60,681 bases of DNA from Sodaliphilus sp. GTDB taxonomy: Bacteria; Bacillota_I; Bacilli_A; RFN20; CAG-826. Positions 96 through 9,331 of this stretch are shown one piece after another. Where the stretch lies: contig CAVIJE010000004.1 in the NCBI GenBank assembly GCA_963643355.1, positions 1 to 60,681 on the forward strand, read 5' to 3'. Position numbers and translations under genes: made by a program. The notes beneath the pieces are model-generated. The model was not told where the DNA came from, searched no databases, and saw nothing but the letters and a program-made list of their open reading frames with translations. The stretch's first letter is position 1. Each line of letters begins with the position of its first letter.

Positions 96-563
96 TTAAT
101 TATTGGTTGAATAGAAAGTCGTGATAACATTGCTCGTTTCAATTAGAATAGAACTCTGATTTAAGGCGATTATTGCTTCATCGCAAATTTTATGAACGTT
201 TTCGAGACTGATATCTTCTAATATGCAAGCGATAGTTCTTTCTTTTGTAATTGCATCATTATCATCTTTCCAATAGCCGTTTGCTTCAAAGATAGTGCAC
301 CCATCAGTGTATTTAGTGCATATTTCAGTTACTTTTTTAAGACATTCATTAAATTCCATTACTGGCTGATAAGTGTCTTTATCGTTCGTTCCGATATAAA
401 GAGTGTATTTGGTGTCATATTCATTGTTTTTTGCGCTTATTTCGTTAATTTGATTCGAAAGAGATATTTCTTTCCCAAGTGCTATGCCTGTTGCAACCAT
501 ATTAATTCCAAGCAATGACGCTAATACGATAGTTACAATTTTTCCCTTACTTAATTTTTCCAT
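96..563 (-). CDS. Small membrane-anchored or exported protein of unknown function
   Basis: 155-aa ORF with an N-terminal hydrophobic anchor (IVTIVLASLLGINMVATGIALG). An aaaggat RBS lies upstream of the ATG. The pattern YTLYIG...GCTIFEANGYW recalls DUF3574-type small exported proteins, from memory and unverified. Confidence 0.5.
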   Translation of the reverse strand: MEKLSKGKIVTIVLASLLGINMVATGIALGKEISLSNQINEISAKNNEYDTKYTLYIGTNDKDTYQPVMEFNECLKKVTEICTKYTDGCTIFEANGYWKDDNDAITKERTIACILEDISLENVHKICDEAIIALNQSSILIETSNVITTFYSTNN

Positions 564-584
564 ACTTTTTATCCTTTTTATATT

Positions 585-623
585 AAAAAGCCACCTAATT
601 AAGCTAGGAGCAAATTGGTGGCC
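585..623 (-). terminator. Rho-independent terminator after lemA
   Basis: Read on the minus strand: GGCCACC, a 21-nt loop, GGTGGC, then TTTTT. It lies directly downstream of the LemA stop. Confidence 0.5.
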
Positions 624-638
624 ATTTTTGTTTTGATA

Positions 639-1313
639 TTAGAAGAAAACCGATTCGGCTTTTTCTTTGATTTCTTTAGAAGCAATGAATGGAATACGGG
701 TTGTGTATCCTTCTTTGGCTGCAACATATTTCTTTGCCCATAAGGTAAAGATTTCAGTGTTCCATTTGGCAACTGCGTTATTATAAACCTCTCTTGCAGC
801 AGTAATTTCTTGTTGAAGATAGGTGTTTTGTTGCATAGCTGCTTGAATTTCTTGATGGGCTTTGAGATCTGGATATTTCTCTAAGGCAATGTTGATTGAA
901 TGTTCAATGTTTTCAAGTTTGCCTTGTAATTCATTACGAGCGATATCTCCATCGGCTCCAGTTTGTTGTCCGGAACGGGCTTTAGCAATATCAACAAAGG
1001 TATCTTTGTCTAAAGCGATTGCTTTATCAAGAAGTTTTGCGGTATTTTGAAGAATGCTAACGCGTTGAGCCATATAGTTATCAATGGTTGAAGCGTCATG
1101 TTGAATCTTTTGTTCAAGTTGTTTGAAATAGGTTCTTGCATGATTCTTCTTGAAGGTATAAACGATTCCTCCAATGATAAATATAAACCAAACGCCAATA
1201 TTAACCGCTTTATCGGTGCTGTTTAATTCGACAGGAACTTTCTTATCGATTACGTGAACGGATCTACCAGCGGTATTTTCTAAGCTAACATCTGTTTCGT
1301 CTAATTGTGCCAT
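639..1313 (-). CDS. lemA: LemA family membrane protein
   Basis: 224 aa with one N-proximal TM (VNIGVWFIFIIGGIVYTF). LemA hallmarks are present: EKYPDLKA and AAREVYNNAVAKWNTEI. An AAAGGAAA RBS precedes the start. Confidence 0.85.
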   Translation of the reverse strand: MAQLDETDVSLENTAGRSVHVIDKKVPVELNSTDKAVNIGVWFIFIIGGIVYTFKKNHARTYFKQLEQKIQHDASTIDNYMAQRVSILQNTAKLLDKAIALDKDTFVDIAKARSGQQTGADGDIARNELQGKLENIEHSINIALEKYPDLKAHQEIQAAMQQNTYLQQEITAAREVYNNAVAKWNTEIFTLWAKKYVAAKEGYTTRIPFIASKEIKEKAESVFF

Positions 1314-1359
1314 ATTTTATTTTCCTTTCTAATATGTTTGCATATATTATATGCATTTT

Positions 1360-3216
1360 CTACTTAACTTCATCACTTTTTTCTTCGAATGCTTCTTTAA
1401 TGATATCCTTTATGTCGCTTCTTGTCTCATCATCAAGCATCATTGAGAACATTCCGCGTCCGAAGAATGCCGCTTTTGAGGCGTCAACAAGGCCTGAAAG
1501 TTCCTTGTTTTCCTTAAGTTTGGCATTGAAATCCTTTCTTGAAGCGCCAGTATAAGCAAGGCAGAAAGAATTATCTCCATCGATTCTATCATATTGTGTC
1601 CAATGAACCGGGACATCATGCCATCTTCCATCTCCCCCTAACATTGAAATGTAATCTGTTTTAGGCGTGGTTTTGTAGGAATAGGTATGTACTTTGATTC
1701 GATCGACTTCTCCATCCTTTTTAGCGGAAATGGATTTGATCATAACAGGCAAGGAAGAATCGCATTCATCAGGCATAAAGAGGGATTGATCCATGGAATT
1801 AGCCATTGCTTCATGTTCGCAATATGAATAATTAGAGGCAATATCTTGTTCAAAGATATATTCCTGAGGCATATGCATCTGATAAAGAGGAATCGATAAT
1901 AACGGGGCTAAATCGAAGAATAAATGTTTGATGAATTCATCGCAATAAGAGACGAAAGAATTCTTCGAAATCGTGAAATCATATGAGGTGTATGTGCTTG
2001 GTCCAGCCGAATAATCGAATGATTGAGAATGTTTTGAGCAAATATAGTTAACCATTCCTTCTTTTACCATATAGAAATCATCGCCATATGGGTTAGGGTC
2101 AGAGAGCAAAGACATCATGTTAGTTTGGGCAAGTGGGGTGAAAAGCAAACGGAATTCAACTTCGTTATCTCTATCTAAAGCGCCAAAGAAAACGTCAAAT
2201 TCGTCATTTCCGGTTGGAGTGAATGTTTTGCCACTAGTGATGGCTTTATCGGCAAGCTTGTTAATTTCCTTCATCTTGCTCTTGACGGTTTTTTCTCTTT
2301 CTTTTTCATCAAGCGCGTTAATGGAAGATGGAGCACGAGAGAAATTTAAGTGAGGTGCTGCTTCGTTTCCGTAAACAAGAACCGTATTTCTTGAATAGAA
2401 AGGCGCCTTATGAACGCTTTTTGCGGTAAGAGTTTGGCTATGATGATGAGAAACGCGATTGCCTTTAGAATCGGTCGTATATGTCGTCCAGGTGATGGTT
2501 ATACTTCCAGTGTACGTTTTATCCTTATATTCTTCTTTTAATGTCTTTTTAAGAATAAATGGATTTCCTTGGATGTTTCCGGAAAGAATTCCAAGAATTG
2601 ATTCATTTTCTTTTCCTTCTCCGTCAAAACCGAATTTATTGACGAGATAATTAAGCCTATTCGCAGAAAAATATGGGTCTAAATCAATTATGTTAGTGAC
2701 TTTTTCCATAATTTTTCCAGGTAAAGACCAATCAAATGAGGCATTAAGACTTTCCATATCGGCATAGCATTCTTTGAGTTTAGCCTCAGTTTCCGCTTTT
2801 GCCTTATTTAGGGCATCTTCTCTTTGTTTAATTACTTTGTTAAGGTTCTTTGTGATATGGACAATCAAATAGATTCCAACTCCAGCAAGAGCGACTGCGA
2901 TAATGATTAACCACCACAAGGTTTTGATATTCAAAGCTCCTGCAACCCCAGCGATTAAAGCGCCAAGGAAGCAAAAAACTATCAAAATAATGAAGAAAGT
3001 TTTTAATCCTTTTGATGAGCCAAGTTTCTCTTCTGCTTCTTTTTGCTTGGATAATAAGTTCTTATATTCGCTAACGTGCTCAGCGTTTGCTTTTTCATCA
3101 GTTCCCGCTTCTTTTGCAAGTTTATTGAAATATTCTTCCGCACCTTGATGATATTGTGCTTTCAATTGCCTTTCGTAAAGGTCTTTTGGTTTATAGAGAA
3201 TTTCTTTTGATTCCAT
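1360..3216 (-). CDS. Large two-TM membrane protein of unknown function, partner of LemA
   Basis: 618-aa ORF. It has a charged coiled-coil N-terminus and two adjacent TM helices (FFIILIVFCFLGALIAGVAGAL and LWWLIIIAVALAGVGIYLIV), followed by a ~480-aa domain. I see no catalytic motif. It lies 46 bp upstream of lemA on the same strand. Confidence 0.7.
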   Translation of the reverse strand: MESKEILYKPKDLYERQLKAQYHQGAEEYFNKLAKEAGTDEKANAEHVSEYKNLLSKQKEAEEKLGSSKGLKTFFIILIVFCFLGALIAGVAGALNIKTLWWLIIIAVALAGVGIYLIVHITKNLNKVIKQREDALNKAKAETEAKLKECYADMESLNASFDWSLPGKIMEKVTNIIDLDPYFSANRLNYLVNKFGFDGEGKENESILGILSGNIQGNPFILKKTLKEEYKDKTYTGSITITWTTYTTDSKGNRVSHHHSQTLTAKSVHKAPFYSRNTVLVYGNEAAPHLNFSRAPSSINALDEKEREKTVKSKMKEINKLADKAITSGKTFTPTGNDEFDVFFGALDRDNEVEFRLLFTPLAQTNMMSLLSDPNPYGDDFYMVKEGMVNYICSKHSQSFDYSAGPSTYTSYDFTISKNSFVSYCDEFIKHLFFDLAPLLSIPLYQMHMPQEYIFEQDIASNYSYCEHEAMANSMDQSLFMPDECDSSLPVMIKSISAKKDGEVDRIKVHTYSYKTTPKTDYISMLGGDGRWHDVPVHWTQYDRIDGDNSFCLAYTGASRKDFNAKLKENKELSGLVDASKAAFFGRGMFSMMLDDETRSDIKDIIKEAFEEKSDEVK

Positions 3217-3249
3217 AATTATTTCCCTTAATTTCTCGTGTATTATAGC

Positions 3250-3285
3250 AAAAAGAAAACTGCTTGTTTATTCTTTTCAAGCAGT
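3250..3285 (-). terminator. Rho-independent terminator after the NUDIX gene
   Basis: Minus strand: ACTGCTTG, a 12-nt loop, CAAGCAGT, then TTTCTTTTT. It separates the helicase-NUDIX unit from the 618-aa/LemA unit. Confidence 0.7.
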
Positions 3286-3294
3286 CTTTGTTTC

Positions 3295-3687
3295 TTATTT
3301 AAGGAAAGGCAAGTCGGCTGAGGCGAAATTTAGTTTCCTTAAATCTTCTTTTTTCATCCAAACGTAATCTGTATGCTCGCTTAAATCAAGATTTCCTGAG
3401 ATTAATTTGCATCTATATCCATATAAAGTGATGGAGAATGGTTCATAAGGATAAATGTCTTTGTATTCGTAATTTGATTCTCCAATGTATTCTATCGGTT
3501 TGATGGTTGAATTAAGTTCTTCTTTGATTTCACGGATAATTGTTTCCTCGTGGCTTTCTCCTTCTTCAACTTTTCCTCCAGGAAATTCCCATTTATCCGC
3601 TAAAGGTTTGCCATTCCCTCTTTTGCAAGCAAAAATCTCGCCATTTTCATTTTCGATTAATGCACATACCACTTCGTAATGCTTCAT
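3295..3687 (-). CDS. MutT-type NUDIX (d)NTP pyrophosphohydrolase
   Basis: 130 aa with a complete Nudix box, GGKVEEGESHEETIIREIKEELN. A GGAGG RBS lies inside the last codons of the upstream gene, and the start is 2 nt after that gene's stop. Confidence 0.9.
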   Translation of the reverse strand: MKHYEVVCALIENENGEIFACKRGNGKPLADKWEFPGGKVEEGESHEETIIREIKEELNSTIKPIEYIGESNYEYKDIYPYEPFSITLYGYRCKLISGNLDLSEHTDYVWMKKEDLRKLNFASADLPFLK

Positions 3688-3689
3688 TT

Positions 3690-6449
3690 TTAAGCCTCCA
3701 TTAATTTTTTAGGATGGATATCGAAGTCGTCATAATAGGACTCCGAAACCTCGCTATCTAATATTACATCAAGGAGGAGAGTTGGTTTACCTTGATTTTG
3801 CGAAATTCTCAAATTGTCAAAATGTCCCGTTCCAAGATATGAGTATGGAAGGTTGATTCCGTGGTCATCTTCCATTTTTCTTACAAATAGGTGAACGACC
3901 TTCGTATTTTGAATCTTTTTTCCAATGCTATTTTCAAGGGTTACGTTGTTTTCGCTTTCCCATTGGAAAGTCCATTGATCAATAAACTTATCTTTATAGT
4001 TGAGTTTTTCTTGGGCTTCGGCATCTTTTTTGAGATTTACGAAAATATATGTTTCACCGCTCTTTTCCTCAAATTTGGTTCCTTTCATGTAATTGAGGGA
4101 ATTTTCTTGAAGAATCATCATGATTTGTTCTTTGTAATAATTCCCCATTAATTTGAATTTTCCTTCGTAATCGCCAAAGTCAATATCATAACGGGATATT
4201 CCATAATTAATGGTATCCAAAAGGAAGGTTCTAAATTCTTCGCTAAAAGTAGGCAAAGAGAGTTTCCCATTAACAATTATATTTTTCTTCATTAGCAAAA
4301 AATAAGCGTGATTTAGCGTGTCTTTTGTGATTTTTTTAGAATCTATTAACGTTTCTAGATTAAAAGAATCGTCCAACATTTGTTTGATGATAAGATATTC
4401 ATCTTTTCTTACTAAAGGGAGGTAATCCGAGACATTATTAAGGAATTCAACCTCATTTTCATTAAATAAGGGGATGCTATCTTCGCCGACATTTTTAAGG
4501 AACTGGTAATAAGAACGATTCTTTTTGCCATTGGTTTTAGCTTTGATGAATTTAATTAAATCAGGAGCTATTTCACTATCCAAATAATCTAAATGCGTGG
4601 GATATGTAGGGGTTTTTAAATATTTTTTGAAATTTTTGTAGTCTTGTTCAAGCAATTCTCGCTTATAGAAATTTGTATTATCTAAGTAGTTAATGATTTC
4701 CTGTTTAGAAAGATCGTCGAAGAAAATCGAAAGACCTGCTATTCCTAGAGTAGAAAAGTTGGTTTTAACCATTGTCTTTAATGTATATTGATCGATAAAA
4801 GGGGAATTTGTTAGAGTGCCTAAGGCAAAGGCTATTTGCGTTGAGCGGCGATAATTGTTTCCGATAAAATCAAGTACCACGCAATAGTCTTTATTCGGAG
4901 CCTTTCTTAATCCTCTTCCTAATTGTTGAAGGAAAATGGTTGGTGATTCGGTTGGTCTTAGAAATAGAACCATATTAATTAAAGGAATATCCACTCCTTC
5001 ATTTAGAATGTCAACGCAACAGATTATTTCTAATGGATTTGTTTCGTCTTGCAAATTCTTGAAGGCTCGTATTCTTTCGCCAGTATCGTTGTTACCGGAT
5101 AAGAATATAGCGTTATATCCAACTTCAGAGAGTTTTTCTTTCATGCTTTGAGCGTGTTGCAAAGACGTGCAAAAGGCAATGGCTTTTAATTTTTGACCGT
5201 GAATTCTATATTTTTCTATTTGTTTAGAAATAAAAGAAACATTTTCTTCTTTAGCGATTTCTGAAGCGATAATCGATTTATTTTCGGAAGAATAATCAGC
5301 AAATTCATCGCGGATGGCATAATAATGAAATGGAACTACTAAATTATTGTTTAAAGCGTCTTTTAGTCTCATTTCAAAAGAAACGTTATTGCCGAAAAGC
5401 GAAAAAACATCTTGATTGTCCATTCTTTCTGGGGTTGCAGTTAAGCCAAGAAGGAAAGAAGGTTTGAAATAATTGATGATTTTGCTACCAGTTTCAGCAA
5501 CGATATGATGAACTTCGTCATAAACGATATAATCAAATTCTTTTGGGTCAAATTCATCAAGATGCTTAGCTATCATAGCAGATGAAGCAAAGATGAAATC
5601 AGCGTTGAGATCTTGATTTTTACCATTATATAATCCGTAAGATCTTCTTGCTTTAAAGACGTTGCTAAAAGTTTTAATGGCTTCAGAAAGAATAACGTCA
5701 CGATGAACGACAAATAAAAGCCTTTTTGCATCAAAGTTTTTAGCGTCAAAGGCGGCTAAATAAGTTTTTCCTGATCCGGTTGCGGCAATAACTAAAGATC
5801 TTTCAACGCCTAAGCTTCTATTTCTTATAAGCTCTTTTAAAGCTCTTTTTTGCATGGCATTTGGTTTTATTGAGCCATCTTCCTCGAAATCATAATCCAT
5901 ATCCCACTTAACTAAAGCGTATTCTTGGCTTGTCCTATATTTTTCGATCAAAGATGAAGAAAGTTCCAATGTTTGTTCCCATAACTCATCGAATTCTTTC
6001 TTTGCTTGATTATATGTTTGAATGTTTTTGCTATCGCTTAGCATGATATTCCATTCGACATTTTTTAATAAGGCAAAACGGGTGATGTTGCTAGAGCCGA
6101 TAAAAACGCTAACTCCATCCTTTCTTTCAAAGAGGTATCCCTTCGAATGAAATCCTGATTCACCAAAGCATTCAAAATCTAGATGAACTTGGAAATTTGG
6201 GTATTTATTGGCGAAAGAAAGAAATTCTTTCAAGGAAGGAATATCGGTGAAATTTTGATATGTGGTGGTAATTAGTCTTCCTTCCACTCCTCTTTCAAGG
6301 GCATCGACAAATTCTTTTTCAATAAGTTTGAATCCGGCGATTTTGATAAAACTTACGGAAAAAAAGAATTTCTCACATTCGTTTAATTCGGTTTTTAATT
6401 GTTCGAGAAACTTTGATTGGCAATGGTTGCTTAAAAATAAATCTTTCAT
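3690..6449 (-). CDS. SauUSI-family Type IV (modification-dependent) restriction enzyme: PLD nuclease, SF2 helicase, DUF3427
   Basis: 919 aa. The N-terminal PLD motif is HSKGYLFERKDGVSVFIGSSNIT (HxK..D..GSxN). Helicase motifs are AATGSGKT, DEVHH, GLTATPER and QQLGRGLR. A ~300-aa C-terminal domain sits in the position of DUF3427. Size and domain order match S. aureus SauUSI. Confidence 0.8.
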   Translation of the reverse strand: MKDLFLSNHCQSKFLEQLKTELNECEKFFFSVSFIKIAGFKLIEKEFVDALERGVEGRLITTTYQNFTDIPSLKEFLSFANKYPNFQVHLDFECFGESGFHSKGYLFERKDGVSVFIGSSNITRFALLKNVEWNIMLSDSKNIQTYNQAKKEFDELWEQTLELSSSLIEKYRTSQEYALVKWDMDYDFEEDGSIKPNAMQKRALKELIRNRSLGVERSLVIAATGSGKTYLAAFDAKNFDAKRLLFVVHRDVILSEAIKTFSNVFKARRSYGLYNGKNQDLNADFIFASSAMIAKHLDEFDPKEFDYIVYDEVHHIVAETGSKIINYFKPSFLLGLTATPERMDNQDVFSLFGNNVSFEMRLKDALNNNLVVPFHYYAIRDEFADYSSENKSIIASEIAKEENVSFISKQIEKYRIHGQKLKAIAFCTSLQHAQSMKEKLSEVGYNAIFLSGNNDTGERIRAFKNLQDETNPLEIICCVDILNEGVDIPLINMVLFLRPTESPTIFLQQLGRGLRKAPNKDYCVVLDFIGNNYRRSTQIAFALGTLTNSPFIDQYTLKTMVKTNFSTLGIAGLSIFFDDLSKQEIINYLDNTNFYKRELLEQDYKNFKKYLKTPTYPTHLDYLDSEIAPDLIKFIKAKTNGKKNRSYYQFLKNVGEDSIPLFNENEVEFLNNVSDYLPLVRKDEYLIIKQMLDDSFNLETLIDSKKITKDTLNHAYFLLMKKNIIVNGKLSLPTFSEEFRTFLLDTINYGISRYDIDFGDYEGKFKLMGNYYKEQIMMILQENSLNYMKGTKFEEKSGETYIFVNLKKDAEAQEKLNYKDKFIDQWTFQWESENNVTLENSIGKKIQNTKVVHLFVRKMEDDHGINLPYSYLGTGHFDNLRISQNQGKPTLLLDVILDSEVSESYYDDFDIHPKKLMEA

Positions 6450-6539
6450 GGATCTAGCTTAGCAGAAATAACAATCTATGTGTATTAAAAGTCACATCCT
6501 AATTAATGTTATTTTATTGTTTTTATCATTTGTTTAAAG

Positions 6540-6860
6540 TTGCAAACAATTATAATCCTATTTTTTAACAAAGAGGAGAAATTAGGAACTCTCAGTTCCG
6601 AACAACTAGAAAAATACAATTATGATGAAGTGAACGAAAGCTATATCATAAAAGTCGAAGAAATCGCCAATATCGATAATTGTTATAATTTAAAACTATC
6701 ATCGGGCATACATACATTCGAAGAAATGTTTGAGGAATCTCTAAGAATCGTCGACGAAGAGGAAAGCGATTCATTTTATAGTTCAAATGTCGTTTATGGT
6801 CTTTTGAAGGCGATGCGTCATGCAAGAAAAGGCGATATTATCCTATTTCACATTGATTAG
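6540..6860 (+). CDS. Hypothetical small acidic protein (doubtful ORF)
   Basis: 106-aa ORF with only a TTG start and no convincing RBS at that start. The product is acidic (DEEESD). It converges on the shared terminator at 6878-6903. Confidence 0.3.
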   Translation: MQTIIILFFNKEEKLGTLSSEQLEKYNYDEVNESYIIKVEEIANIDNCYNLKLSSGIHTFEEMFEESLRIVDEEESDSFYSSNVVYGLLKAMRHARKGDIILFHID

Positions 6861-6916: not shown

Positions 6917-9172
6917 TTATTTTTGTGGGGCAATATCAATTGTGAAGAAATAATTGTCAGCATTATTATTAGTGAAAGCCCAATATTCATCATTATTCCA
7001 ATACCAATGGCTTTCGGCATAACGAGCCCAGCTTGCAATCTTTTGCGTTCCAAGGTTCATGCCGCTAGCAGCATCGACAAACGTTCCTTCAAACGTTTTT
7101 CCATACCAGCTTGAAGCGCTGTTTTTGCCACGGAAATTATAGTTCTTACCAACTTCGAAATAATCTCCGCCTGGATTACCTTTTGCAACACAATTTAAAA
7201 CCATTCCCGTATCAGAGTTGTTAAGCTCCCTTTCCGTTCTATCATTGGTTAAGATTCGATAGGAAGATGAGCTGGCCTTCTTTAAGGAAACTAAAGTTTC
7301 AGCCGCTTGAATGGAAGATGAGGAAATAACATTGGAATTTGAAAGATAATGGATGTAGTCGTATTTGCTATCAACTGCTCCAGATGAACGTAATAAATTC
7401 CATCTAGTAACAATACGAGAGTGTTGCATCGCGCTTATGCTTGCGTGTTTGGACATATCATCTTTCGTTCTAGACACATTAACGCCATTCATCTCGATTT
7501 TATCGACGTTGAATGCGACGTCTAATTTGCATTTATTTCCTGGGTTTGAATAGGAAGCCGCATATTCGCTTTGATAGAAACCGCCACTTAAAATCGCTGA
7601 AGTCGTAAAGGAATATGTATCAGCGGTATCAGTGATGCTCTTATAAAATTTTTGAATGGCTTCACGAGCACTCTTATAGTTTTTCTCGAGCTCAGATGTG
7701 CTATATCCAGCAAAAAGGCGAGCTTCTGCAGCACGAGCCGTGTTCATATCTAAAATTTGCAATAAGTTGGCGGATAAAGTACGGACTGTCGCTTTTATTT
7801 CTCCGCAGAAATTATACATGCATTGGAGACGGGAAAGATAAGTATTGAGAATGGATATTTTTCCTGATGCACCAGTGATTCTTTCAGCTAATTCAATAAC
7901 GTAATTGCCATAGTTTTGAGCTTTTTCTTTGTTGCTAGAAAAATATTTTTTCATGAATTGCTCATAAATCATGGCCGTAACGAAACTACGAAGATTCTCT
8001 TTGCTTGCACCTTCTGGAAGATCGCTCTTTTTAGCAAGAGCGGCATCAATGTCTTTATCAAGCTCAGCCATGAAGCCATTTTCTACGATGTTGTTGTGTT
8101 TGCTTAAATGTGCTTTAGCATTCGAAAAATCTCCGATGTTCAAAGAGAAATTATAGCTTGGCGCATCCCCTAGATCCGCTAAAGGTGTAGATGTAATTTC
8201 ACCTTTGGCATTCTTGCTTAAAACGAGATTCACAGTTTGGGAGGAATTGACGAAATCGCGATAATAGGTTCCTGCGTGATCAGCAAGGTCACGGTTGAAA
8301 ACATTAATTGGGGAAATGCAATTAGTCGCAAAATCATTGATAGCAAGATTTAAGGTATTGAGATTGGTTTGATCGACAAGCGCTTCAGTGCGAACTATTT
8401 CATCGGCCAATTGCTGAGTGTTTTTCTCGAGCTTTGCGCCTAATTCATCGATTTTCCTATCCATTTCCTTTAATTGGTTCATGACGTCTTGAATAGTTGG
8501 GCTTGAGCTTGTGAAATTCTCCGCTAAAGTGCTAAATATGCCGAAGATTCCAGATACTATCGCTGTTGGATTTTCTGTTCCTACCCCAACGACGATCATG
8601 GCAATATTGCTAAACATTTGCATGATGAACTTGCCACCATCTTCCCAAGAAAGCTGGCTTGAAACGTATTTTTCTTCAAATTCAGCTTGTGGATCTTTGC
8701 TAATGGTATTATTGTCTTGGCGTTTTGTTACCATCACATATTCGTTTGCTGAGGTGACAGAAGAATGCACCAACATTCCGTAATTGCTTGAATCAGCCGA
8801 AGAAAAAGTAACATTAAAGCCATCTTTATCAGCAAGAGTTTCAATGCTATTAACAGGAATAGAGGCCGCTTTTAATGTAGCGTAATCCGCATAGCCTTTT
8901 CCATTCTCTTCTATGAGTTTAACGGCTTTATCGACATCATAAACGATGACATCGTCCTTATCTAATTCATCGGTAAAGATAGTAACGTCAGTATCGGCGT
9001 TAAAGCTGTAAATGTTGTCGCCTTTATTTTCTAGATTCGCTTGAATCGTTATGAAATCAGACATATCTTCTTTTGTATAAGACCATTTGTTAGTTTCTTC
9101 TTTTGAACAAGAAGCTAAAAGAGTAAACGTGAGAGAAGTAATAAGTAATAGACTTGTTTTCTTTCTTTTCAT
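6917..9172 (-). CDS. Large surface lipoprotein with a helical domain and hydrophobic hairpin
   Basis: I trimmed the ORF to MKRKKTSLLLITSLTFTLLASC (lipobox LASC), which has an AGGA RBS. The 751-aa product has a ~180-aa N-domain and a ~360-aa helical region containing FSNIAMIVVGVGTENPTAIVSGIFGIFSTLA followed by coiled coil. The C-terminal ~200 aa are Trp/Tyr-rich and beta-like. Confidence 0.8.
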   Translation of the reverse strand: MKRKKTSLLLITSLTFTLLASCSKEETNKWSYTKEDMSDFITIQANLENKGDNIYSFNADTDVTIFTDELDKDDVIVYDVDKAVKLIEENGKGYADYATLKAASIPVNSIETLADKDGFNVTFSSADSSNYGMLVHSSVTSANEYVMVTKRQDNNTISKDPQAEFEEKYVSSQLSWEDGGKFIMQMFSNIAMIVVGVGTENPTAIVSGIFGIFSTLAENFTSSSPTIQDVMNQLKEMDRKIDELGAKLEKNTQQLADEIVRTEALVDQTNLNTLNLAINDFATNCISPINVFNRDLADHAGTYYRDFVNSSQTVNLVLSKNAKGEITSTPLADLGDAPSYNFSLNIGDFSNAKAHLSKHNNIVENGFMAELDKDIDAALAKKSDLPEGASKENLRSFVTAMIYEQFMKKYFSSNKEKAQNYGNYVIELAERITGASGKISILNTYLSRLQCMYNFCGEIKATVRTLSANLLQILDMNTARAAEARLFAGYSTSELEKNYKSAREAIQKFYKSITDTADTYSFTTSAILSGGFYQSEYAASYSNPGNKCKLDVAFNVDKIEMNGVNVSRTKDDMSKHASISAMQHSRIVTRWNLLRSSGAVDSKYDYIHYLSNSNVISSSSIQAAETLVSLKKASSSSYRILTNDRTERELNNSDTGMVLNCVAKGNPGGDYFEVGKNYNFRGKNSASSWYGKTFEGTFVDAASGMNLGTQKIASWARYAESHWYWNNDEYWAFTNNNADNYFFTIDIAPQK

Positions 9173-9331
9173 AGTTTTTATTCCTTTATTTAAGTTTGCG
9201 ATATTATACACAATTGAAGGCAAAAACAATTAATAAATTCTAAATATTTTAAAAAAATTCCTTGTAATAACACGCAGTATGAAATGAAGAGAGATCAATT
9301 CAAACCATAATATGCTTTTATTTTTGTTTAT

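Follow-up and report, generated by a model that had tools for sequence, protein, structure and literature searches.

A predicted SauUSI-family restriction enzyme and a co-translated NudG-like NUDIX protein form a conserved gene pair with a possible role for the NUDIX partner in nucleotide pool sanitation

We analyzed a two-gene locus on a 60,681-nt stretch of DNA from Sodaliphilus sp. (positions 1-60,681 of contig CAVIJE010000004.1, assembly GCA_963643355.1), a Mollicutes-like gut bacterium; this whole stretch is referred to below as the window. At positions 3295-6449, both on the minus strand, a gene for a predicted Type IV restriction enzyme of the SauUSI family is followed by a gene for a small NudG/MutT-like NUDIX hydrolase. 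Across genomes, this nuclease–NUDIX pair is a conserved module whose adjacency goes far beyond chance, and the window locus is a further example of a pair that has already been documented. We explored the hypothesis that the NUDIX protein hydrolyses 5-substituted deoxycytidine triphosphates (dCTPs) and in this way protects the host chromosome from its partner nuclease. Taken as a whole, we judge this statement to be evenly poised between right and wrong.

More than 7,500 homologues of the 919-aa nuclease were found. From a one-genome-per-species collection, we took 80 loci encoding SauUSI homologues (43-93% identity) and searched their six-frame open reading frames (ORFs), which were called mechanically, with the window NUDIX protein. 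Neither these loci nor the 80 used in the reverse search described below are a random sample: in each case, the highest-ranking matches were taken from no more than 600 pattern hits. Represented among the SauUSI loci are Mollicutes-like Bacilli, Clostridia, Bacteroidota, Kiritimatiellae and two bins of gammaproteobacteria. In 57/80 loci (71%), the SauUSI homologue has a same-strand NUDIX gene no more than 70 bp away, downstream in 48 and upstream in nine, and the two genes often have overlapping stop and start codons (gaps of -1, -4, -8 and so on). Five more loci carry the NUDIX gene 348-2486 bp downstream and one has it adjacent but convergent, while 13 lack it with both sides evaluable and four are not fully evaluable owing to contig ends. 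A profile built from the NUDIX hits recovered no further NUDIX gene in the loci without one.

Apart from the slot next to the nuclease gene, these 558 kb of flanking sequence contained seven NUDIX matches in ~517 gene slots, or ~1% per slot. Compared to these other slots, the position next to the nuclease gene has an odds ratio of 48 for a NUDIX match (Fisher p 8e-35). The initial annotation of this DNA had suggested counting such neighbors against a background frequency, and the count bears out the enrichment. The result also speaks to the alternative that the NUDIX protein is an ordinary MutT-type 8-oxo-dGTP sanitiser, or "DNA repair" enzyme, that hitch-hikes next to a functionally unrelated nuclease. 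The two genes adjoin in 71% of loci, and they do so in several phyla and either gene order, with reading frames that mostly overlap or nearly touch; such a pattern is difficult to account for unless selection maintains it.

In the window itself, the junction could be read directly. The SauUSI-like gene (3690..6449, minus strand, 919 aa) ends with a TAA at 3692-3690, two bases follow at 3689-3688, and the ATG of the NUDIX gene (3295..3687, minus strand, 130 aa) occupies 3687-3685; the NUDIX stop codon and the SauUSI-like start codon thus mark the two ends of the interval 3295-6449. The GGAGG ribosome-binding site of the NUDIX gene (3695..3699, minus strand) is embedded in the final codons of the nuclease gene, and 7 nt separate it from the ATG. 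Past the NUDIX gene, an intrinsic terminator (3250..3288, minus strand) consists of an 11-bp stem, an 11-nt loop and CUUUUU. RNA folding gave -13.2 kcal/mol for this hairpin (z = -3.07), and 0/200 shuffles folded equally well; our pattern scan had missed it because the loop exceeds the 8-nt limit of the scan. No terminator-like site was found between the two genes. The junction arrangement and the terminator after the NUDIX gene therefore define a two-gene, co-translated operon, and on the 2-nt gap, the embedded GGAGG, the translational coupling and the single terminator our reading agrees with the initial annotation. The next gene has a promoter-like site (3270..3242, TG-TATAAT) that shares sequence with the 3′ half of the terminator. 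Before the SauUSI-like gene, a consensus scan returned a promoter-like site, TTTAAA-16-TAAAAT (6511..6538, minus strand), which is a weak match only (9/12), and no Shine-Dalgarno sequence is evident ahead of the ATG at 6449.

The 919-aa protein aligns collinearly, over aa 6-906, with residues 32-948 of the SauUSI crystal structure (PDB 7CLG, E 1.8e-117) and matches the PADLOC model mREase_IV for Type IV methyl-directed restriction endonucleases (2.1e-116). Pfam searches identified a PLDc_2 nuclease domain at aa 41-157 (5979..6329; 2.6e-11), a superfamily 2 (SF2) helicase-like ATPase at 4905..5870 (ResIII, aa 194-342, 3.1e-34; Helicase_C, aa 417-515, 2.5e-13) and a DUF3427 region, corresponding to the coupler and the SRA-like target recognition domain, at aa 668-909 (3723..4448; 5.8e-28), all encoded on the minus strand. 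The SauUSI architecture had been proposed from the letters of the sequence, and the full-length structural match, the DUF3427/SRA-like C-terminus and the helicase motifs I (AATGSGKT), II (DEVHH) and VI (QQLGRGLR), all present in the translation, uphold that proposal. Its reading of the nuclease motif as "HxK..D" requires correction: the protein has H101-x-K103-x4-E108 followed by GSSN121, with the glutamate found in SauUSI as well (H119-x-K121-x4-E126).

Mutagenesis of SauUSI identified H119, K121, N139 and E150 as catalytic residues (PMC3141236). In the 7CLG alignment these correspond to H101, K103, N121 and E132 of the window protein, which are invariant among 13 homologues (alignment A1). 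The modelled pocket of SauUSI for 5-methylcytosine (5mC) is formed by Y831, F841, I842, D858 and W868 (PMC7913695), positions that are occupied in the window protein by F793, F803, V804, D820 and W830. Four of these five aligned residues (F803, V804, D820 and W830) are identical or conservative, and D820 and W830 are invariant in alignment A1; the substitution of Tyr831 by Phe793 falls at the methyl-contact position. At the position matching SauUSI Met829, which fills the gap left by the flipped base, the alignment is ambiguous. Judged from its sequence, the 919-aa protein is a genuine SauUSI-family Type IV enzyme, and because its catalytic and pocket residues correspond to those of SauUSI, it should be an active nuclease that reads 5mC and 5-hydroxymethylcytosine (5hmC).

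The 130-aa partner matches Pfam NUDIX at 9.1e-22 (77.9 bits, cut-off 21.1) and NUDIX_4 at 2.8e-16. Its translated Nudix box, G38-x5-E44-x7-R52-E53-I54-x-E56-E57-L58-N59-S60 (3508..3576, minus strand), departs from the consensus GX5EX7REUXEEXGU only in the trailing G-U, changed to N-S with N59 in the usual G position, and E44, R52, E53, E56 and E57 are invariant in the NUDIX family alignment (A2). Asp125 (codon 3313..3315, minus strand) occupies the position of NudG Asp118 and of MutT Asn119. Aspartate is found at this position in 137/138 family members, and in NudG likewise; Asn119 is the residue with which Escherichia coli MutT reads 8-oxoG. A NudG-type Glu-His pair at 104-105 is common to the family.

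The profile of SauUSI-linked NUDIX proteins scores NudG (2RRK) at 115.8 bits and MutT (1MUT) at 83.5 bits, which together with Asp125 sets the family closer to NudG, the 5-methyl-dCTP/CTP enzyme, than to MutT. The window protein itself falls below the curated cut-offs of the MutT equivalog models (TIGR00586, 80.0 vs 97.9 bits; PRK10776, 71.2 vs 148 bits) and carries aspartate instead of asparagine at position 125, so it does not qualify as MutT; its score for the NudG equivalog in NCBIfam (PRK10546) is 77.3 bits vs a cut-off of 156. Because it lies below both sets of cut-offs, it should be filed as neither. We describe it by sequence as NudG-like, neither a NudG orthologue nor a MutT equivalog.

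These comparisons bear again on the hitch-hiking alternative. Database annotations as MutT or 8-oxo-dGTP diphosphatase are consistent with it, as are the NCBIfam MutT model as top match, though below its cut-off, the label "DNA repair" used by Bell 2020, and the lack of a restriction phenotype for the Staphylococcus aureus deletion described below. Against these stand the linkage itself, the aspartate kept where MutT has Asn119, the higher family profile score for NudG, and the fact that 8-oxo-dGTP is not among the best substrates of the characterized family member (3GWY). The pairing of similar NUDIX genes with genes for proteins that carry a McrA-like HNH domain points the same way, less strongly since the likeness to McrA is limited to the HNH part. 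Weighing both sides, we regard an unrelated MutT-type sanitiser as improbable.

The best PDB matches of the window NUDIX protein are 5X1X, followed by 3GWY. The latter is Q5LBB1 of Bacteroides fragilis, which belongs to the same NUDIX family and provides the sole measured substrate profile of that family. Q5LBB1 hydrolyses 5-methyl-dCTP (5-Me-dCTP) and 5-hydroxymethyl-dCTP near the diffusion limit, with kcat/Km values (M-1 s-1) of 6.7e6 for 5-Me-CTP, 4.8e6 for 5-Me-dCTP, 4.4e6 for 5-hydroxymethyl-dCTP and 8.5e4 for 5-OH-dCTP, and much lower values for canonical NTPs (Nguyen et al.; PMC5158307). With the SauUSI-linked NUDIX proteins of Prevotella/Segatella it shares 55-58% identity, and our neighbor-joining (NJ) tree places it next to them. 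We considered whether Q5LBB1 is itself SauUSI-linked and rejected this, as its gene adjoins dprA in three contexts, with no SauUSI homologue within 6 kb. The biochemical support therefore applies at the family level. On these grounds, the suggestion in the initial annotation that the NUDIX protein acts on modified dCTP gains from the measured 5-Me- and 5-hydroxymethyl-dCTPase activity of a family member and from the likeness to NudG, while what it gains concerns the family and not the window protein in particular.

The Q5LBB1 gene and its near-identical relatives (L081:1979-2419, L083:6001-6393 and L084:6001-6381) are divergent from a dprA-like gene (DNA_processg_A). In one context of this type, a run of phage-like genes (P22-type, primase) begins immediately downstream, as would be expected of an integration hotspot.

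The chemistry of SauUSI suggests how such a NUDIX activity could matter. In SauUSI, SRA-type flipping of 5mC or 5hmC activates the ATPase, and translocating dimers shred the DNA between target sites (PMC7913695). By analogy, the SRA-like domain of the window nuclease would flip 5mC or 5hmC in foreign DNA and switch on the SF2 ATPase, whereupon the dimeric PLD nuclease would cut and shred the DNA. Degradation of restricted methylated DNA, or nucleoside salvage in the DNA-rich gut, may yield 5m-dCMP and from it 5m-dCTP, whose polymerization into the chromosome would create SauUSI targets. The NUDIX protein would prevent this by converting 5-methyl-dCTP, 5-hydroxymethyl-dCTP and 5-methyl-CTP, its presumed preferred substrates, to monophosphates, and would thus play the protective part that a methyltransferase plays in classical restriction-modification. 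PCR DNA made with 5m-dCTP or 5hm-dCTP is indeed cut by SauUSI, and SauUSI is toxic in Dcm+ E. coli (PMC3141236).

The linkage has a history in print, contrary to the statement in the initial annotation that no such two-component system had been described. Xu 2011 noted at least 60 SauUSI-like enzymes linked to such NUDIX genes, the function of which "remains to be examined" (PMC3141236). Monk 2012 cleanly removed the NUDIX gene from S. aureus Newman and found restriction unaffected (PMC3312211); Bell 2020 listed MutT homologues beside SauUSI homologues in a figure legend, labelled "DNA repair" (PMC7641849); and a 2025 Streptococcus suis preprint found PDC-S07 co-located with Type IV restriction-modification genes in 23/23 cases (10.1101/2025.08.29.672906). 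In the searchable literature, we found no paper that assigns a function to a SauUSI-linked NUDIX protein. Intact restriction after the S. aureus deletion fits a protective rather than a catalytic partner.

The same deletion bears on the idea that the NUDIX protein is a cofactor or regulator of the nuclease, removing pyrophosphate or by-products of ATP hydrolysis, or a nucleotide that inhibits or activates SauUSI. The former role was proposed by Xu 2011 (PMC3141236), and the tight translational coupling suggests co-production of both proteins. Purified SauUSI, however, works alone in vitro (PMC3141236, PMC7913695), and restriction in vivo is intact without the NUDIX gene (PMC3312211), a result by which the cofactor role is largely refuted. 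The 13 loci without a NUDIX gene also manage without this partner. Finally, SF2 motors hydrolyse ATP to ADP and Pi, which leaves no pyrophosphate to remove. We consider a cofactor role very improbable.

The window NUDIX protein also matches the PADLOC model PDC-S07 (3.3e-42), a candidate defense system that is scored there as a single gene. This model (PDLC04899) gives 131 bits to E. coli MutT, 144 to NudG and 141 to the window NUDIX protein. Since the two E. coli enzymes reach scores comparable to that of the window protein, we judged the match to be weak evidence for a defense role and rejected it as such; given this lack of specificity, PDC-S07 calls in genome surveys will include ordinary MutT/NudG genes.

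We also searched from the NUDIX side, using 80 metagenomic relatives with 32-65% identity to the window NUDIX protein. Thirty-five lie beside a SauUSI homologue (22 with the NUDIX gene downstream, 12 upstream, one convergent), and more than half of the nearest relatives are therefore found elsewhere. At L129:1801-3786 and two other NUDIX-anchored loci (alignment A3), the gene stands beside DUF2075/Schlafen-group-3 helicases, which match PADLOC PDC-S41 (775 bits). At L103:1239-3986, a relative adjoins a Mokosh-like AAA_11/AAA_12 helicase fused to DUF2726, and another unlinked relative adjoins a Bpu10I-type restriction endonuclease. Two further recurrent neighbors of ~290 aa gave no Pfam family match, and many unlinked relatives have plain housekeeping neighbors.

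These surroundings raise the possibility that the NUDIX protein is a second, independent anti-phage effector, one that starves hypermodifying phages of 5-hydroxymethyl-dCTP or another 5-substituted dCTP, with SauUSI attacking any modified DNA that the phage still produces; the two would then act together on the invader rather than protect the host. The equal activity of 3GWY on 5-hydroxymethyl-dCTP and 5-Me-dCTP fits such a role, as does the frequent position of unlinked relatives beside defense genes (PDC-S41/DUF2075, the Mokosh-like DUF2726 helicase and the Bpu10I-type enzyme), the stand-alone B. fragilis copy at an apparent phage-integration hotspot and the listing of the family in PADLOC as a stand-alone defense candidate. 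That listing carries little weight, given the scores of MutT and NudG in the same model, and many unlinked relatives sit among housekeeping genes. No phage phenotype has been reported, and kinases easily reverse hydrolysis to the monophosphate, so depletion would need high flux. We think a starvation effector, although the main alternative, unlikely.

Several observations count against protection of the host by pool sanitation. The window NUDIX protein falls short of the NudG equivalog cut-off as given above, and Q5LBB1 is only 36% identical to it and is encoded apart from SauUSI, next to dprA; for SauUSI-linked NUDIX proteins, no substrate profile has been published. The 13 fully evaluable SauUSI loci without any nearby NUDIX gene indicate that the partner is not obligatory; no recurring replacement gene was seen at these loci, where the heterogeneous neighbors include a DUF45-like protein, HsdR, a C5-methyltransferase fragment, an HIT-family protein and housekeeping genes. 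The linked NUDIX genes do not form one clade, a candidate reading that we rejected on finding linked and unlinked copies interleaved in the NJ tree, which is built on ~120 aligned columns with a MutT sequence as outgroup and is poorly resolved. Over 50 nuclease–NUDIX pairs, the divergence of the two proteins is only weakly correlated (Spearman 0.16, Mantel p 0.007), so that nuclease and NUDIX do not diverge closely in step. Loss of the NUDIX gene left S. aureus viable with no reported phenotype, the data being not shown in PMC3312211, so any self-toxicity of the nuclease must be conditional. Sparse, hemi-modified incorporation might also not trigger SauUSI. Some of these points also qualify the earlier description of the locus as a dedicated two-gene operon: the operon stands, while "dedicated" is too strong, since more than half of the nearest NUDIX relatives are unlinked and the tree is interleaved.

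A second nuclease type encountered among the NUDIX relatives allows a broader form of the pool sanitation hypothesis. Three family members that are not beside SauUSI (L090:2387-3624, L112:1056-2335 and L146:3159-4414) share 4-40 nt with a neighboring gene whose product is ~275 aa long. At their C-termini, these products have an HNH domain that matches E. coli McrA, a 5mC-specific restriction enzyme (6GHC, E 2.2e-21), and the McrA-type mREase_IV model of PADLOC. The likeness is confined to this HNH part, the N-terminal ~200 aa gave no Pfam family match, and the architecture is unrelated to that of SauUSI. These proteins may represent a second kind of Type IV enzyme paired with NUDIX, and the pairing hints at modified cytosine as the concern of this NUDIX family.

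In its general form, the hypothesis states that pool sanitation is the "immunity" partner of cytosine-modification-dependent restriction enzymes. A NudG-like 5-methyl/5-hydroxymethyl-dCTPase would have become the partner of non-homologous 5mC-dependent nucleases more than once and in either gene order, namely of SauUSI-type PLD-helicases and possibly of the proteins with a McrA-like HNH domain, and would keep modified cytosine from destroyed invader DNA or from the environment out of the host chromosome. We put this forward tentatively and lean slightly against it. No paper in the searchable literature states or tests pool sanitation as an immunity partner of such nucleases.

Adjacent arrangements on opposite strands were seen only twice, at L020 and L135. 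At L020:7762-8301, the NUDIX gene is convergent with the SauUSI homologue and the 3′ ends overlap by ~8 nt. In an Anaeroplasmataceae locus (L005:2804-3757), the NUDIX frame runs ~185 residues further, as a 317-aa ORF that continues to the contig end; the extension gave no Pfam match and could reflect a fusion or a lost stop codon. At L054:1921-8270, a SauUSI homologue without NUDIX is flanked by a type I HsdR-like gene (1021 aa) on one side and by a 157-aa ORF on the other. The latter resembles, by eye, the C-terminal end of a C5 cytosine methyltransferase (QCGNSVVVP motif), and it could be the remnant of a disrupted methyltransferase beside a 5mC-dependent nuclease.

Downstream of the operon in the window, on the same strand (96..3216), are genes for a MAG1210 family protein (618 aa, NCBIfam 576 bits), LemA and a DUF3574 protein. 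The block of SauUSI, NUDIX, MAG1210 family protein and LemA is syntenic in genomes of the window lineage, with SauUSI proteins 83% and 79% identical; loci L165 and L167 both have MAG1210 and then LemA after the operon, and the DUF3574 gene comes next only in L165. The upstream flank varies. In the window, a 770-aa ORF with a lipoprotein-like N-terminus (LLASCSKE; 6917..9229, minus strand) and a divergent 106-aa ORF (6540..6860, plus strand) lie between the operon and an Rnf cluster; neither matched a Pfam, NCBIfam or PADLOC family, and both are absent from L165, where the Rnf genes abut the SauUSI gene. We considered the 106-aa ORF as a part of the system and rejected it for these two reasons. 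The pair has a GC content of 0.32-0.35 and its surroundings 0.33-0.40, which gives no clear island signal and no mark of recent island acquisition.

In staphylococci, genetic manipulation and horizontal gene transfer are hindered above all by SauUSI, a protein whose relatives abound in gut bacteria. In the usual picture, Type IV enzymes are solitary, needing no protective partner since the host carries no modification. If the NUDIX protein does destroy 5-methyl- and 5-hydroxymethyl-dCTP to protect the chromosome, this picture would have to be revised, nucleotide salvage would help to set how costly such enzymes are to their hosts, and a gene linkage that has stood unexplained for 15 years would gain a function. 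The present analysis adds the quantified linkage, the tie to a measured 5-substituted-dCTPase activity and the pairing of similar NUDIX genes with genes for proteins that bear a McrA-like HNH domain.

The closest known system is the S. aureus pair (SAUSA300_2431/SAUSA300_2432). Its nuclease, SauUSI (SAUSA300_2431; 7CLG), has the same four-part architecture and catalytic residues as the window nuclease and the same aligned 5mC-pocket residues, in kind, except for Tyr831 to Phe793. Its NUDIX protein, for which 5X1X is the structure (99% identical to P0241 in our sequence search), is likewise ~130 aa long and encoded on the same strand as its nuclease, and is 36% identical to the window NUDIX protein in alignment A2. 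In S. aureus, 1 nt separates the end of the NUDIX gene from the 953-aa sauUSI, compared to the 2-nt gap in the window, and the gene order is reversed, with NUDIX upstream in S. aureus and downstream in the window; the downstream order is the commoner one in both samples (48 vs 9 and 22 vs 12). The hosts differ as well, the window deriving from a Mollicutes-like gut bacterium.

E. coli NudG (Orf135; 2RRK), a CTP/dCTP/5-methyl-dCTP pyrophosphohydrolase, has its size and fold family in common with the window NUDIX protein and shares a C-terminal "P-A-D-I-P" region with Asp118 and the Glu-His pair. NudG Arg72 and Arg77 are not kept in the SauUSI-linked family by profile alignment, and to our knowledge the E. 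coli gene for NudG has no restriction gene linked to it. The proposed activity also resembles, by analogy, that of house-cleaning enzymes such as phage T4 dCTPase gp56 and human DCTPP1, the window NUDIX protein being without homology to MazG-type dCTPases; DCTPP1 removes 5-methyl-dCTP and so stops unscheduled 5mC incorporation (PMC4491611). The broader analogy is with classical restriction-modification, in which a nuclease likewise has a companion enzyme that prevents host DNA from becoming one of its targets. The pair considered here lacks a methyltransferase, and any protection would operate on DNA precursors rather than on the DNA.

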